NCBI GenBank assembly: GCA_951406725.2
Contig: OX597821.1
Span: 13,764,001 to 13,828,000, forward strand
DNA length: 64,000 nucleotides
Direction of reading: 5' to 3'
Source: Octopus vulgaris
Lineage: Eukaryota
Made by a program: the position numbers and the translations under genes. The notes beneath the pieces were generated by a model. It was not told where the DNA came from. It did not search any database and was given only the letters and a program-made list of their open reading frames with translations. Shown here in pieces: positions 23,240 through 55,956 of the stretch (its first letter is position 1; each line of letters starts with the position of its first letter).

Positions 23240-23678
23240 GCAATAATAATTCTCTAAAAGAGATATAGACAGTAACTGCTCGATAACATAAGGGACTAAA
23301 GCCATCTGAATATGGCTAGGGACAGGGCAGGGTGGTGGGGGTGTTACTGTTGCATTTAGCCCCAGGCGAACATCGACGTCACCAGATAGGCCCGACACCG
23401 TCACGGTGTCCTTTAACCTGCAAAGGGAGGTAATTCCCCGATGAAGCGGAAACCACACACGGACCGACGTTTCAGGCAATACACCTTGAAACCATGGTCC
23501 GTGTGTGGTTTCCGCTTCATCGGGGAATTACCTCCCTTTGCAGGTTAAAGGACACCGTGACGGTGTCGGGCCTATCTGGTGACGTCGATGTTCGCCTGGG
23601 GCTAAATGCAACAGTAACACCCCCACCACCCTGCCCTGTCCCTAGCCATATTCAGATGGCTTTAGTCCCTTATGTTAT
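23240..23678. mobile_element. Fold-back element between (TA)n tracts, with 183-bp inverted arms and hammerhead 3' halves at the centre
   Basis: Arms 23283-23465 and 23496-23678 read as exact reverse complements. The centre reads AGG-caataca-CCT-t-GAAAC-CATG-GTC on + and GAAAC-GTCG-GTC on -. Confidence 0.8.
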
Positions 23679-25590
23679 ATATATATATATATATATATAT
23701 ATATATATATATATATATATATATATATATATATATATATATATATATACATATATGTATGTATATGTGTGTATATATATATATATATATATATATATAC
23801 GTGTGTATACGTACGTGTCTATGTATGTATGTATGTATATATATGTATATAATTAAGAGACAAAACAATAATAATAATAATAATAACAACAACAATAATA
23901 TATATATATATATATATGTGCATATATATATGCATGAATATATGTATATATACTTTTTTCAGTCATTAGACTGCAGTCATGCTGGAGCAACACATGAAAG
24001 ATTTAGTCGAACAAATTGAGCCTAGTACTAATTTTTAAATCTGGTACTTTTTCTATCTCCCCACCCCCACTTTTTTGCCGCACTGCTAAGTTACAGGGAC
24101 ATAAACAAACCAACGCAGATTGTCAAGCGGTAGATAGCGAACAACCACAACACAAACACAGACACAGACTCACACACTCGCTCTCCCTCCCTTTCTCTGT
24201 CTGTCTCTCTCTCTCTCTCTTTCTCTCTCTCTCTCTCTCTCTCTTTCATACGCACACACACGCACATGTATAATAAACGACAGGCTTCCACGCAGTTTCT
24301 GTCTACCAAATACACTCATAAGGGTTTGATCAGCCCAGATCTATAGAAGAGACACTTGTCCCAAGTACCACGCAGTGGGACTGAACGTAAGATCACAAGA
24401 CTGAAAATCAAGCTTCTTATCCGCACAGACACGCCTGCGCCTATATATTTGTTCATAAAAATAAAATGTTTGTCTGTCCCTGAGAGAATTAGAATTCGAA
24501 CTCTAATCTTTCTGCTTAAAAAAGTTGTTTGTAATTTGTAGAATTACCAAATATGGAGCCATAAAATCGTATTTCCACTCAGGCAACAGAAATATCTCAG
24601 AAGTCTAAACAATTTATCTCTTACAGTCACTAAACCTTCCCGGAAGCTATACACATGGAAACACATTTATTTTATACGTCTTTCTGAATGTAAGGTGAAG
24701 AATTAACCTACTTTTTTTGTCTCTTATTTCTAATACTTTTAGTTGTTCAATACTGAAACAAGCAGGGTCCCTGTTGCCTCTTACAAGAGATATAGTCACA
24801 TAAGAAACTCATTTAAGCATGCCACAGATATTTGAAACTTCCTCTGAGTTCACTGTCACTCTATGTATATATATATGTGTGTATTTGAGAGAGAATGAGC
24901 GCCTGCCTGTCTCTGTATATATTTATCTATTTTCATCGGTGTATATGTGTAACATTCCCCTACAAATTATAGTTGTTGAGATGGAATGACAAGGGTTGTA
25001 GCCCGGAAGATAATCACCGGAAATATTCGCAAGATGTCACCGATACGACGCCATGTTTCCGCACGCGACGGCACCACACCAACTGTAAAACATATATAAT
25101 GGGCCTTGTTTCGTTTCCTATTAAATCCACCTTTTAATACTTATCATATTATATATACCTTTAATTTATCTCACACCAAGAGAGTTTCGTTATATTTTTA
25201 TTTTCAAGAAGCCACACGCTTCGTTCTTTTTGTTTATTTCACTCCTTCACTCTCGTTCGCACAGTGTGTTCTCTATCTTTTTTCTCACTTCTACCATTTC
25301 TTTCATGCCAATATTAATTCATATTAAGATCACATATAGAAAAGAAATAATGGATAAAATTAGCGGTTTTGAACGAACACGTACAAATGTGTGTGTGTGT
25401 GTGTGTTAATGAATATGTGCGTGTGTGTGTATGTATGCATATATGCAAGGATACACATACACATGTATATCCAAATATAAGTTTGTTTGCATCTATATAT
25501 CTACATCTATCCGTCTATCAATCTATTTATCTATTTATCGATATATATATATATATATATATATATATATATATATATATATATATATAT

Positions 25591-27201
25591 ACCCAAAAGC
25601 CAGGAAATTTTAAGCACTCCCTTGTAGAATGTTTCATCGAAGGTTACCTCTTCACTACCCAAGGGCAAGCTATTTTCTTCTTCTACTTCACGTTCAGACG
25701 AAGAGTAAAGAGTCGAAACGTTAATTCTTAACCCTTCCAGAAATAGTCGAATTCTCCAACAGAACCCTTTTTTGAACTAACTTGTACCGATACTGATTAT
25801 CACTATTTTCTTCAGGTTCTAAATAATACATTCGAGTGCATCAAACTGAAGTTCCTGTGCAGTTTAAATCTTACGCTAATTCGGTACGGATTAGATTTAA
25901 TTAATCGAGCGCTGGATGTATATCGAGGAGAGACGATTCTGTATTTGTTTTTCCCCATTTTTAAAGAGGTTTCAATATTTATGAATAATTCGTTACAAAC
26001 AGGATAACGGATGAGACCGTGATAAAAGTTATCAGTAATATGCATACATACATACATACATGCATACATACATACATACATACATGCATGCATGCATACA
26101 TACATACATTCATACATGCATACATACATACATACATGTATACATACATACATACATACATACATGCATGCATGCATGCATACATACATACATACATGCA
26201 TACATACATACATACATACATACATACATGCATACACACATTACATACATACATACATGCATGCATACATACATACATACATACATACATACACACATTA
26301 CATACATACATACATACATAAACACATACATACATACATACATGCATGCATACATACATACATACATACATATACATATATATATATATATATATATATA
26401 TATATATGTATATGTATGTATGTATGTATGTATGCATGCATGTATGTATGTATGTATGTGTTTATGTATGTATGTATGTATGTAATGTGTGTATGTATGT
26501 ATGTATGTATGTATGTATGCATGCATGTATGTATGTAATGTGTGTATGCATGTATGTATGTATGTATGTATGTATGTATGTATGCATGTATGTATGTATG
26601 TATGCATGCATGCATGCATGTATGTATGTATGTATGTATACATGTATGTATGTATGTATGCATGTATGTATGTATGTATGCATGCATGCATGCATGTATG
26701 TATGTATGTATGTATGCATGTATGTATGTATGTATGCATATTACTGATAACTTTTATCACGGTCTCATCCGTTATCCTGTTTGTAACGAATTATTCATAA
26801 ATATTGAAACCTCTTTAAAAAATGGGGAAAAACAAATACAGAATCGTCTCTCCCTCGATATACATCCAGCGCTCGATTAATTAAATCTAATCCGTACCGA
26901 ATTAGCGTAAGATTTAAACTGCACAGGAACTTCAGTTTGATGCACTCGAATGTATTATTTAGAACCTGAAGAAAATAGTGATAATCAGTAACGGTACAAA
27001 TTAGTTCAAAGAAGGGTTCTGTTGGAGAATTCGGCGGACTCGATTTCTGGGAAGGGTTAATGAATTAACGATTCGACTCTTTACTCTTCGTCTGAACGTG
27101 AAGTAGAGAAAGAAAATAGCTTTGCCACTTGGGTAGTGAAGAAGGTAACCTTCGATGAAACATTCTACAAGGGAGTGCTTAAAATTTCCTGGCTTTTGGG
27201 T
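25591..27201. repeat. ~1.6 kb palindrome (inverted duplication) centred on a (TA)n tract
   Basis: acccaaaagccaggaaatttt… (25591) mirrors …aaaatttcctggcttttgggt (27201). The (CATA)n array is mirrored as (TATG)n around ~26390. Confidence 0.92.
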
Positions 27202-27359
27202 AAATGAAAATACAGGAAGATCAGTGAATTATGATTCTATTCAACATAGCTCCCACTCAGAGTCACACACTTATTGTAGCGGTCCTTCAGTTTTTCTAAG
27301 CCCTGTAAAAGAACTTCGCGTGACCCTCAAAGCCAGGAACTTTGCAGCAACCCCTCGTA
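27166..27359. mobile_element. mariner-derived MITE with TA termini
   Basis: TIRs TAcaagggagtgcttaaaatttcctggcttt and aaagccaggaactttgcagcaacccctcgTA. The internal minus strand reads …GLEKLKDRYNKCV…, resembling a mariner transposase C-terminus. A related copy lies at ~32330-32482. Confidence 0.7.
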
Positions 27360-54089: not shown

Positions 54090-54903
54090 GTGTTCTTTCT
54101 GATGTGAATTTGCTACCCAGGTATCGGTTATCTTTTGAATTATCCTTAATAAGATAATTCATTCAATAACTCAAACATATATATATATATATATATATAT
54201 ATATATATTATAACATACGTGTGTGTGTGTGCGTGTGTAGTATTTATGACTTAAATATTTAAGACAAATACACACACGTATATTAGGTATATATTTATAT
54301 CTCTTATTATATCTAATATAAATAGGTAGGTAATATTATAATCTTAATAACAATAATAATAATAATAACAACAACAACGATTACGATGTTAGCAATTATT
54401 ATTATTATCATCATCATCATCATCATCATCATTATTATTATTATTATTATTATTATTATTATTATTATTATTATTATTATTATCGTAAATCTAATAAATA
54501 GATTTAGTAAGATATAGTATTCAGTTATTTACACTCTGATCCTTTGGTTAACCAAAAGCGCATCAGATTCATTTGTATATTTTAATCTTTAGAAAATAAA
54601 TTCTGTATTTAAAAAGATTATTCATTTTTCTTGAATAATCCGATTTGGAAATATCTATAGAAGTAAATATGATAAGAATACGTTTGGTAAATCTGTATAT
54701 GGTTCCGAAAATAAACCAAACACAATCCACCATAAGGTTAACTATAGTATGAGCGAAAATACCTGTCGTTCAGAGAAGAGATTGGTAAAGGGAAAGAGTA
54801 GAAAAAAAATACTGTTATAGCTATTTTTGTTGTATTAGCTATATAGAAATACATGTGCGTGGGTGCCCGCGCGCAGAAATATATACTTACACACATATAT
54901 ATA

Positions 54904-55301
54904 GGCACAGGAGTGGCTGTGTGGTAAGTAGCTTGCTAACCAACCACATGGTTCCGGGTTCAGTCCCACTGCGTAGCACCTTGGGCAAGTGTCTTCTACT
55001 ATAGCCTCGGGCCGCCCAAAACCTTGTGAGTGGATTTGGTAGACGGAAACTGAAAGAAGCCCGTCGTATATATGTATATATATATATATGCTTGTGTGTG
55101 TTTGTGTGTGTCCCCCTAGCATTGCTTGACAACCGATGCTGGTGTGTTTACGTCTCCGTCACTTAGCGGTTCGGCAAAAGAGACTGATAGAATAAGTACT
55201 GGGCTTACAAAGAATAAGTCCCGGGGTCGATTTGCTCGACTAAAGGCGGTGCTCCAGCATGGTCGCAGTCAAATGACTGAAACAAGTAAAAGAGTAAAGA
55301 G
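54904..55301 (+). mobile_element. SINE family B
   Basis: Near-identical to 40669-41075. Confidence 0.85.
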
Positions 55302-55716
55302 TATATATACGTATATGCATGTGTGTGTATGTATAGAAATTTGTGGCTTGCTTTCTAATCAAATGGTTCTGGGATTAGTCCCACTGCGTTGCATCTCGGG
55401 CAAGTAGTGTCTTCTACTATATAGACTTGGCCCGACCAAAGCCTCGTGAATGGATTTGGTAGACGGAAACTGAAACGAAACCTGTCGTATGTGTGTGTGT
55501 ATCGACAGAATAAGTACCAAGCCTTAAAATTATAAGTACTTGAGTCGATTCAAATAACTAAAAACTCCTCAAGGCTGTACCCTAGCATGGCTGCAGTCCA
55601 ATAACTGAAACAAGCAAAAGATACAAGATGCATATACATGAATATGTATGTATATATCTATATATATATATATATATATATATATATATATATATATATA
55701 TATATATATATATATA

Positions 55717-55956
55717 CTTTATTTAAAGCAGCAGATAATTCAACAAAACCTGTTACTCTGAGTTTCCCGTTGCCGTTCATCGGACAGTTTTTGCTTGAAT
55801 CATTCTAGCAAAAACTGTCCGATGAACGGCAACGGGAAACTCAGAGTAACAGATTTTGTTGAATTTTCTGCTGCTTTAAATAAAGCATATTACTCTACCA
55901 CTGGTATTTGAGTACTCTTTTTTCCACCTTGTTTCACATTTATGTGTTTACTCCGG
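55717..55956. mobile_element. Fold-back element (84-bp arms) with two divergent hammerheads, flanked by (TA)n
   Basis: Arms 55717-55800 and 55802-55885. The + strand (55815-55852) reads CTGT-CCGATGA-A-CG(gcaa)CG-G-GAA-ACTC(a)GAGT-A-ACAG. Mirror copy at 55750-55787. Confidence 0.82.

Follow-up and report, generated by a model that had tools for sequence, protein, structure and literature searches.

Six fold-back elements in a 64-kb, microsatellite-rich stretch of the Octopus vulgaris genome (contig OX597821.1, positions 13,764,001 to 13,828,000; hereafter the window) carry hammerhead ribozyme motifs and are all bounded by (TA)n runs. They begin at window positions 23240, 37445, 39376, 46514, 53712 and 55717 and are labeled F1 to F6 in that order, as are the repeat families to which they belong. 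Their basic architecture is the one already published for insertions of Penelope-like elements (PLEs), spread across the genome (2.8 Gb in 227 contigs were searched). We consider it likely that the six loci were made by a PLE reverse transcriptase (RT)-endonuclease that cuts both strands of (TA)n and primes two complementary DNAs (cDNAs), which then join. New here are families with unusual cores and long tails, a derivative of ∼140 nt, PLE-type insertion of retrozyme-like arrays, and counts that favor coupled twin priming.

Fold-backs in (TA)n Pair Two Fixed 3′ Ends

A seed scan recovers all six inverted repeats where a preliminary description of the window had placed them; the right end of F5 lies at ∼54175, not 54089. 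Other features listed in that description are also borne out: the loci share no primary sequence (no cross-similarity when one reference copy per family is compared), every hammerhead motif points away from the fold-back center, helix III is self-complementary, and the window copies carry no open reading frame (ORF). Its layout needs amending at two points. A (TA)n run is present at the short arm as described but is not exclusive to it, both ends adjoining (TA)n, and a tail does extend one arm but in F5 measures ∼155 nt, outside the 40–75 nt range given.

Each of these families has two fixed 3′ ends: an A end, which includes the tail, and a B end 43–155 nt upstream. The autonomous PLE described below likewise has two. 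We classed 159 insertions, having set aside five F1 loci that overlap and 11 F6 loci that are duplicates. An inverted copy lies next to the main copy in 122, comprising 110 that pair an A with a B end and 12 in which the partner of A is some other end; A+A and B+B pairs are absent, and the remainder are single A (33), single B (1) or too long (3). Because most queries behind this set held the tail, samples were also chosen independently of the ends used, in part overlapping the first set. These end-blind samples contain 92 resolved fold-backs, with 88 A+B, 3 B+B and 1 A+A, against 46 A+B, 24 B+B and 22 A+A expected under independent ends (binomial p ∼6e-22). Arm-only queries gave 14 A+B, 1 B+B and 3 single arms for F1 (n = 18), and 13 A+B, 2 B+B, 4 with a non-standard end and 3 single arms for F2 (n = 22). 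A center-pattern sample of F4 (n = 30) gave 29 A+B and 1 A+A, all 14 F6 loci comprise 13 A+B and 1 single arm, and the autonomous family, found by its protein, gave 19 A+B, with 5 more loci left unresolved.

Targeting to (TA)n, as previously proposed, is evident at these ends. A TA run of at least 10 nt adjoins 181 of 195 A or B ends in F1, F2, F4, F5 and F6, or 190 of 232 when F3 is included (F1 40/41, F2 39/46, F4 59/59, F5 21/23, F6 22/26, F3 9/37). By a similar measure the background is ∼3% in a genome sample (40 stretches of 10 kb, spaced at fixed steps along 22 contigs) and 8% in the window.

The two arms of a copy also share their variants. In each of the six families, mirrored variants are more numerous than in any of 500 arm permutations (observed versus permuted: F1 39 versus 7.9, F2 29 versus 9.8, F3 14 versus 4.5, F4 10 versus 2.2, F5 12 versus 3.2, F6 20 versus 9.2), which implies either that the arms have one source or that they were later converted. 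At the centers the arms mostly overlap by 0–12 nt or are joined by short filler. In 5 of 20 alternative F4 junctions, the point of joining coincides exactly with the 8 nt over which the stem I strands are complementary.

Hammerhead Motifs Include Unusual Cores

With a type-I hammerhead descriptor that tolerates four core variants, the window yields 8 cores, compared with a mean of 0.067 in 60 local dinucleotide shuffles. Six of these cores fall in four of the six loci; any match occurs in 2 of 1000 locus shuffles. The F1 and F4 loci are missed because these copies are damaged, the core of F1 being interrupted by the fold-back center and stem I of F4 being short in both arms. Full motifs are present in other copies of both families.

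Three cores in the window are variants, with U4C at F6 (also found in the F1 family) and a swapped G3-C8 pair at F3. The G3-C8 core is found in 22 of 28 F3 arms, and U4C in 44 of 49 cases for F1 and 34 of 34 in the autonomous PLE; the G10.1-C11.1 pair is absent from F1, F2, F4 and F6. U4C reduces hammerhead activity in vitro, according to Perreault (2011). In computed folds, helix III does not make a stable hairpin in five of six families, whereas its duplex with a second copy reaches −6 to −15 kcal/mol, with the exception of F3 (−0.2). The hammerheads are predicted to act as dimers via helix III, if they cleave at all, and cleavage is probably not needed for insertion. An Rfam search, suggested in the preliminary description, returned no hammerhead family among the matches listed (150 of 528, by E-value), and at gathering score gave 0 matches in seven loci.

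Further motifs were noticed in passing. A complete hammerhead at window position 21160 (minus strand) combines a stem II that is long and AT-rich with a helix III that forms a perfect 10-nt palindrome, and is kin to a motif in one of the collected loci, L257. Hammerheads with a U3-A8 core lie at L180:7400-7440 and L277:5250, so the genome has canonical, U4C, U3-A8 and G3-C8 cores. In F4 copies (e.g., L093, L096, L101 and L111), small deletions and substitutions seem grouped in the first few bases 3′ of the predicted cleavage site.

Families and Their Templates

Every locus is a member of its own dispersed repeat family, and the earlier view of the loci as (TA)n insertions of distinct PLE- or retrozyme-like families is borne out. 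A first look at the genome gave 1678 candidates for F1, 855 for F2, 1699 for F3, 190 for F4, 2330 for F5 and 14 for F6; 40 copies each were scored for F1 to F5, and all 14 for F6.

F1 is a 360/361-bp tandem unit that forms dimers and longer arrays in which the strand is switched once per array. In structure it resembles a non-LTR retrozyme, with ORF-less tandem units in the 170–400 nt range with one type-I hammerhead each. Folded as a circle, the unit reaches −120 kcal/mol (z −5.3 relative to 60 shuffles). Its end-to-start junction occurs in contigs of public runs, one of them a likely DNA run and the others RNA by our guess. In addition, one segment of the unit (L005:1561-1647) is covered much deeper by public contigs than the remainder, pointing to a far larger sister family that shares it.

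Copies of F2 and F3 end within a few bases of a single 5′ position just upstream of the hammerhead. For F2 this stop is partly built in, as query and reference end there, yet single copies pass into (TA)n at that point. The 5′ end of F4 is sharply fixed at the first base of stem I, and 0 of 20 genome-wide matches off the common junction reach new sequence; 173 F4 copies share one identical, exact center. Copies of F6 run at most ∼60 nt upstream. These four families are short ORF-less derivatives. The templates of F2, F3 and F4 would be short ORF-less RNAs with a defined 5′ end, and the F6 template is probably likewise. F4 itself, only ∼140 nt long, consists of little beyond the ribozyme motif and tail.

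The idea that the F4 center was inherited from a fold-back master was dropped: a center-only pattern gave orientations of 17:12:1, and the near-uniform orientation in 30 F4 loci arose because that sample was query-driven. An arm-only DNA search for F4 returned no candidates and was uninformative. A link between F3 and nearby ORFs was also rejected, since L179 and L180 hold separate F5-related elements beside F3 copies, and the ORF in L183 belongs to an unrelated PLE on the opposite strand. At L183:1240-2166, likewise beside F3 copies, a further fold-back family flanked by TA lacks an obvious hammerhead; the PLE ORF on the opposite strand there is Neptune- or Poseidon-like. An initiator-like motif was noticed near the clustered 5′ ends of F5 and F6, for which the Drosophila virilis promoter in the pseudo-long terminal repeat (pLTR), described by Schostak (2008), is a parallel only.

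An Autonomous Hydra-Clade PLE

Extension in the 5′ direction had been suggested as a way to look for RT and GIY-YIG ORFs. In F5 it reaches ORFs resembling both, so that the window copy is a truncated form of an ORF-bearing element; no ORF was found for F1 to F4 or F6. Long F5 copies continue 5′ into a 3′ untranslated region, a C-terminal endonuclease-like (GIY-YIG-like) ORF and RT motifs, and in one copy (L176) the core lies ∼580 nt past the ORF. CxxC and CxH are present in this parent, whose N terminus was not recovered.

An ORF beside an F5 copy led to a young autonomous family. Of its 150 scored endonuclease matches, 145 are 100% identical, 14 rows have 717-aa open frames, and many matches form minus/plus pairs. 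The unit measures 2.59 kb, lies between (TA)n runs and includes a U4C hammerhead and a 67-nt tail (e.g., L340 and L365-L378, at C4:46713500-46723200 and elsewhere). RWK, DKT, CxCX5C, CxxC and CxH are all found in a unit of less than 3 kb, the combination given for the Hydra clade by Craig et al. (2021). We found 998 relatives of the protein and built a structure model from 118 of them (predicted local distance difference test, pLDDT, 92.8); telomerase RTs (TERT) rank first in a fold search with this model. The GIY-YIG match is weak (E 0.02), and Pfam and PDB sequence searches fail to recognize the RT. This family is an endonuclease-positive (EN+) PLE with a telomerase-like RT and a GIY-YIG domain in one ORF. 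Its protein is apparently intact and appears to have been recently active. The F5 ORFs match the profile of the autonomous family (E 1e-37 and 2e-34), and by this homology F5 also classes as an EN+ PLE.

A Model for Two-Strand Priming and Its Alternatives

In the proposed mechanism, an uncleaved hammerhead-containing RNA would be bound by the PLE protein, probably as a dimer. One cut strand would prime at A, its partner at B, and the two would probably use a single RNA, or RNAs of one source locus, as template. Both cDNAs would proceed to the RNA 5′ end, halting there or sooner, and their 3′ ends would anneal over a few complementary bases, so that fill-in yields a tail-to-tail palindrome in which only one side bears the tail. 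The template may have been a truncated or pLTR-initiated transcript of the ORF-bearing element for F5, and a tandem or circular retrozyme-like RNA for F1. A more specific proposal, whose chances we put at about even, is that a PLE dimer couples two fixed RT starts on one RNA, one per cut strand, the inverted pLTR resulting when the two cDNAs anneal; that it moves retrozyme tandems as well as the ∼140-nt F4 form; and that the natural G3-C8 core of F3 (∼1000 or more copies) reflects selection on the catalytic pair.

Several observations weigh against this account. An endonuclease search for the partner of F1 to F4 and F6 returned the single young family, and no autonomous partner was identified. 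Similarity of their tails to that of the active element is suggestive only for F4 (p 0.005) and F6 (p 0.05; 15 comparisons, uncorrected), and none was detected for F1, F2 or F3. The F5 ORF is without the CxCX5C linker of Hydra and is thus named Hydra-like only. F3 shows little association with (TA)n, which adjoins 7 of its 19 A ends and 2 of its 18 B ends, and four or more F3 loci have common flanks and so are not independent. The mirrored variants also fit arm-to-arm gene conversion or a common source locus. The B arm is never the further-reaching one in F2 (A further in 7 copies, equal in 15), and in the other families asymmetric deletion at the palindrome center after insertion could also lengthen it. 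Tails of 43–155 nt compare with 30–40 bp in print. Finally, bulk start sites are alike on both strands in the data of Frangieh et al. (2024).

The preliminary description had invoked fold-back or template switching of a single cDNA, which is disfavored by the arms themselves. If one tail-primed cDNA snapped back or switched template and deletions at the center followed, the mirrored variants and short center overlaps would be accounted for, as would the F2 tail arm, which is never shorter at the center. However, such an origin predicts that the tail arm reaches furthest 5′. Instead, the tail-less arm is the further-reaching one in 17 of 29 copies of F4 and in 15 of 39 copies of F3 (6/18), F5 (3/8) and F6 (6/13); a longer B arm would require later deletion after snap-back of an A-primed cDNA, but not after annealing of two primed cDNAs. 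The precise B stop is also left unexplained, B corresponding to an RT start site in Frangieh et al. (2024; PMC11167929), and single B-ended arms exist. We therefore regard a single-cDNA origin as unlikely. Two independent single-arm insertions, placed tail-to-tail in one (TA)n by chance or by a preference for earlier copies, would draw on the observed grouping of PLE copies in the same runs (e.g., L179, L336 and L343), but are highly improbable given that no (TA)n lies between the arms, that the same family and variants occur on both sides, and that one A end is paired with one B end.

Short, ORF-less elements with long inverted repeats in TA, 173 of them (in F4) with one exact center, also resemble non-autonomous fold-back DNA transposons of the miniature inverted-repeat transposable element (MITE) type, targeting TA and with ribozyme motifs that are incidental. 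MITEs are recognized by equal terminal inverted repeats and a fixed interior; here the ends are unequal with a one-sided tail, centers vary between copies in five families, single arms are common, the F4 tail falls on either side of the center (17:12), and F5 and the autonomous family continue into RT-endonuclease ORFs. There is accordingly very little to recommend a DNA transposon. The evidence from outside the assembly is limited to contigs of public runs, which leaves some room for an artifact of chimeric fold-back long reads. Against this, one-arm variants occur, ends fall at two family-specific sites by (TA)n, centers contain filler, and in contigs of other runs the F1 B end adjoins (TA)n (run X16) and one joint changes strand (run X17). 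These stereotyped ends, arm differences and run contigs make an assembly artifact very unlikely.

Comparison with Known Systems

Hydra-clade EN+ PLEs resemble the octopus families in their inverted truncated copy, tail, (TA)n target, pLTR hammerhead and ORF motifs. Craig et al. (2021; PMC8557442) describe an inverted 5′-truncated copy, a tail at one end (often, 30–40 bp) and (TA)n targets (Figure 2 legend), a Hydra clade characterized by RWK, DKT, CxCX5C, CxxC and CxH in a single ORF of under 3 kb, and non-autonomous pLTR-forming derivatives of Chlamys. They also name the origin of tandem and inverted PLE insertions as open.

The biochemistry of the PAc Poseidon element, in the portion available of Frangieh et al. 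(2024; PMC11167929), includes cutting and extension of both strands, two start sites bounding the tail, a predicted dimer, an AT-rich target, an unprocessed RNA substrate, hammerhead cleavage that is dispensable in vitro, and partial rescue by C3G/G8C. In that portion, inverted insertions are not explained, the two start sites are not linked to each other within one event, and post-initiation steps are called unvalidated. The PAc hammerhead overlaps the ORF start, whereas the ORF of the octopus active element begins downstream of the tail. In the literature searched, with subscription papers, Repbase and supplements outside its scope, we found neither the one-A-one-B rule nor PLE twin priming stated, and no report of a natural G3-C8 PLE core.

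Young families such as these yield countable constraints on insertion: one A and one B end, one arm source, and either arm longer. A 140-nt minimal template of the F4 kind and the apparently intact protein are candidates for in vitro work. Such hairpins could also be misread as MITEs or microRNA precursors.

In twin priming of LINE-1 (L1), two target-primed cDNAs are joined by microhomology to give an inversion. In L1 the internal position from which the second primer starts varies, and there is no overlap between the arms. In contrast, the octopus families would start both cDNAs at fixed sites near the 3′ end, so that the arms are mirror copies.

F1 (361 bp) and a second repeat, L282 (∼505 bp), are like non-LTR retrozymes in having ORF-less tandem units with one type-I hammerhead per unit. 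The second is found at L282:4382-7004, where a 505-bp tandem hammerhead repeat has three minus and three plus units and an ∼88-nt tail at one end, in (TA)n; a piece resembling this tail occurs at window 37375-37395. Cervera and de la Pena (2020; PMC7229834) and Li, Clavereau and Pollet (bioRxiv 10.64898/2026.07.22.740005) treat retrozymes and trace them to PLEs. In both, the case for PLEs comes from co-occurrence and pLTR homology, whereas here the arrays sit as tail-bearing fold-backs in (TA)n. The F1 and L282 fold-backs are direct structural evidence of PLE mobilization of retrozyme-like arrays. The F1 core is U4C. In Li et al., eight of nine dimers assayed failed to cleave.

Minimal PLE hammerheads, as presented by Cervera and de la Pena (2014; PMC4209133), occur as opposite-strand pairs 100–700 bp apart and have low dimer activity. 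They are of type I with a palindromic helix III and a short helix I, as is the octopus set, and include an extra base between 9 and 10.1 (here in F3) and a U3-A8 covariant (here in L277). The octopus set differs in that G3-C8 dominates F3, U4C is fixed in the active element and common in F1, and G10.1-C11.1 is missing from F1, F2, F4 and F6. An O. vulgaris repeat annotation names 31 Penelope-like families as recently active, with no mention of ribozymes in the part available.

Layout of the Loci and Genome Context

Coordinates of the arms, and of two further elements, are listed in the table. In F1, the hammerhead 3′ half comprises GAAA, the palindromic helix III and the cleavage triplet, and a core remnant at 23464-23470 is split by the fold-back junction. 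The tail-bearing arm of F3 has an additional base ahead of stem II and is preceded by 16 nt of filler (39468-39483).

Table. Arms of the six fold-back loci and additional hammerhead-family elements, in window positions
Feature	Position	Strand	Remarks
F1 tail-bearing arm	23240..23474	-	A end 23240; tail 23240-23282 (43 nt); part of 360/361-bp tandem retrozyme-like unit
F1 tail-less arm	23475..23678	+	B end 23678; hammerhead 3′ half 23488-23499
F2 tail-bearing arm	37445..37699	-	Tail ∼37445-37509; intact canonical core 37655-37661
F2 tail-less arm	37701..37878	+	Mutated core 37739-37745
F3 tail-less arm	39377..39467	-	Truncated 3′ of hammerhead core
F3 tail-bearing arm	39484..39687	+	Tail ∼39630-39687; G3-C8 swapped core 39505-39511
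F4 tail-less arm	46514..46581	-	Reaches hard 5′ end of family (stem I first base); core 46569-46575
F4 tail-bearing arm	46582..46713	+	Tail ∼46646-46713; core 46583-46589; recurrent microhomology junction
Older single-arm F3 copy, stopping at B site adjoining (TA)n	49622..49752	-	
F5 tail-less arm	53712..53881	-	Complete hammerhead; core 53835-53841
F5 tail-bearing arm	53882..54175	+	Tail ∼54021-54175 (155 nt); core 53890-53896; 3′ end of Hydra-like RT-endonuclease PLE
F6 tail-less arm	55717..55800	-	U4C core 55777-55783
F6 tail-bearing arm	55801..55956	+	Tail ∼55886-55956; U4C core 55819-55825
Extra hammerhead-bearing repeat, absent from the preliminary description	57180..57376	+	Single arm between two (TA)n runs; core 57223

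Window 52437-52720, ∼1.6 kb upstream of the F5 locus, is a direct duplicate of the end of the F5 tail with its downstream flank, resembling a local duplication.

The preliminary description also proposed a dense and diverse ribozyme system inside a neuronal gene intron. With the same descriptor, the genome sample yields 22 cores distributed over 15 loci, four of which lie in fold-backs (the L282 array among them), from which we roughly estimate a genome-wide load on the order of 100,000 loci. The window, with six descriptor loci and four matching fold-backs per 64 kb, is ∼2.5 and ∼6 times denser than the sample, respectively, and its (TA)n content is 2.5 times higher. It is thus denser than average, but the load is genome-wide and does not form a local system. 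No host gene was found above cut-off in 171 ORFs from the window and six neighboring 10-kb stretches; the sole hint of a synaptic gene is a possible short exon at 29310-29498, whose PDZ_assoc match is weak and falls below cut-off (E 0.009), with no PDB match. A candidate exon at 13731-14377 (minus strand) was rejected as a broken fragment resembling the endonuclease region of a long interspersed nuclear element (LINE), judged by eye in the absence of a Pfam match.

Three further inverted structures lie in the window. A small complex fold-back at 9997-10106 has no hammerhead match and none among the collected loci. A large inverted repeat at 25592-27202 has unique arms of ∼450 nt (94% alike in their inner part) on either side of a (CATA)n(TA)n(TATG)n center with mirror symmetry; its left end adjoins (TA)n and its right arm continues. 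The unique arm has no match among 384 collected loci, and a degenerate hammerhead-like motif in this repeat reads inward. At 6300-6861, an older inverted pair surrounds a short interspersed nuclear element (SINE)-like repeat and microsatellites, and has at each end a hammerhead-like core, without an obvious 3′ half, that reads inward.

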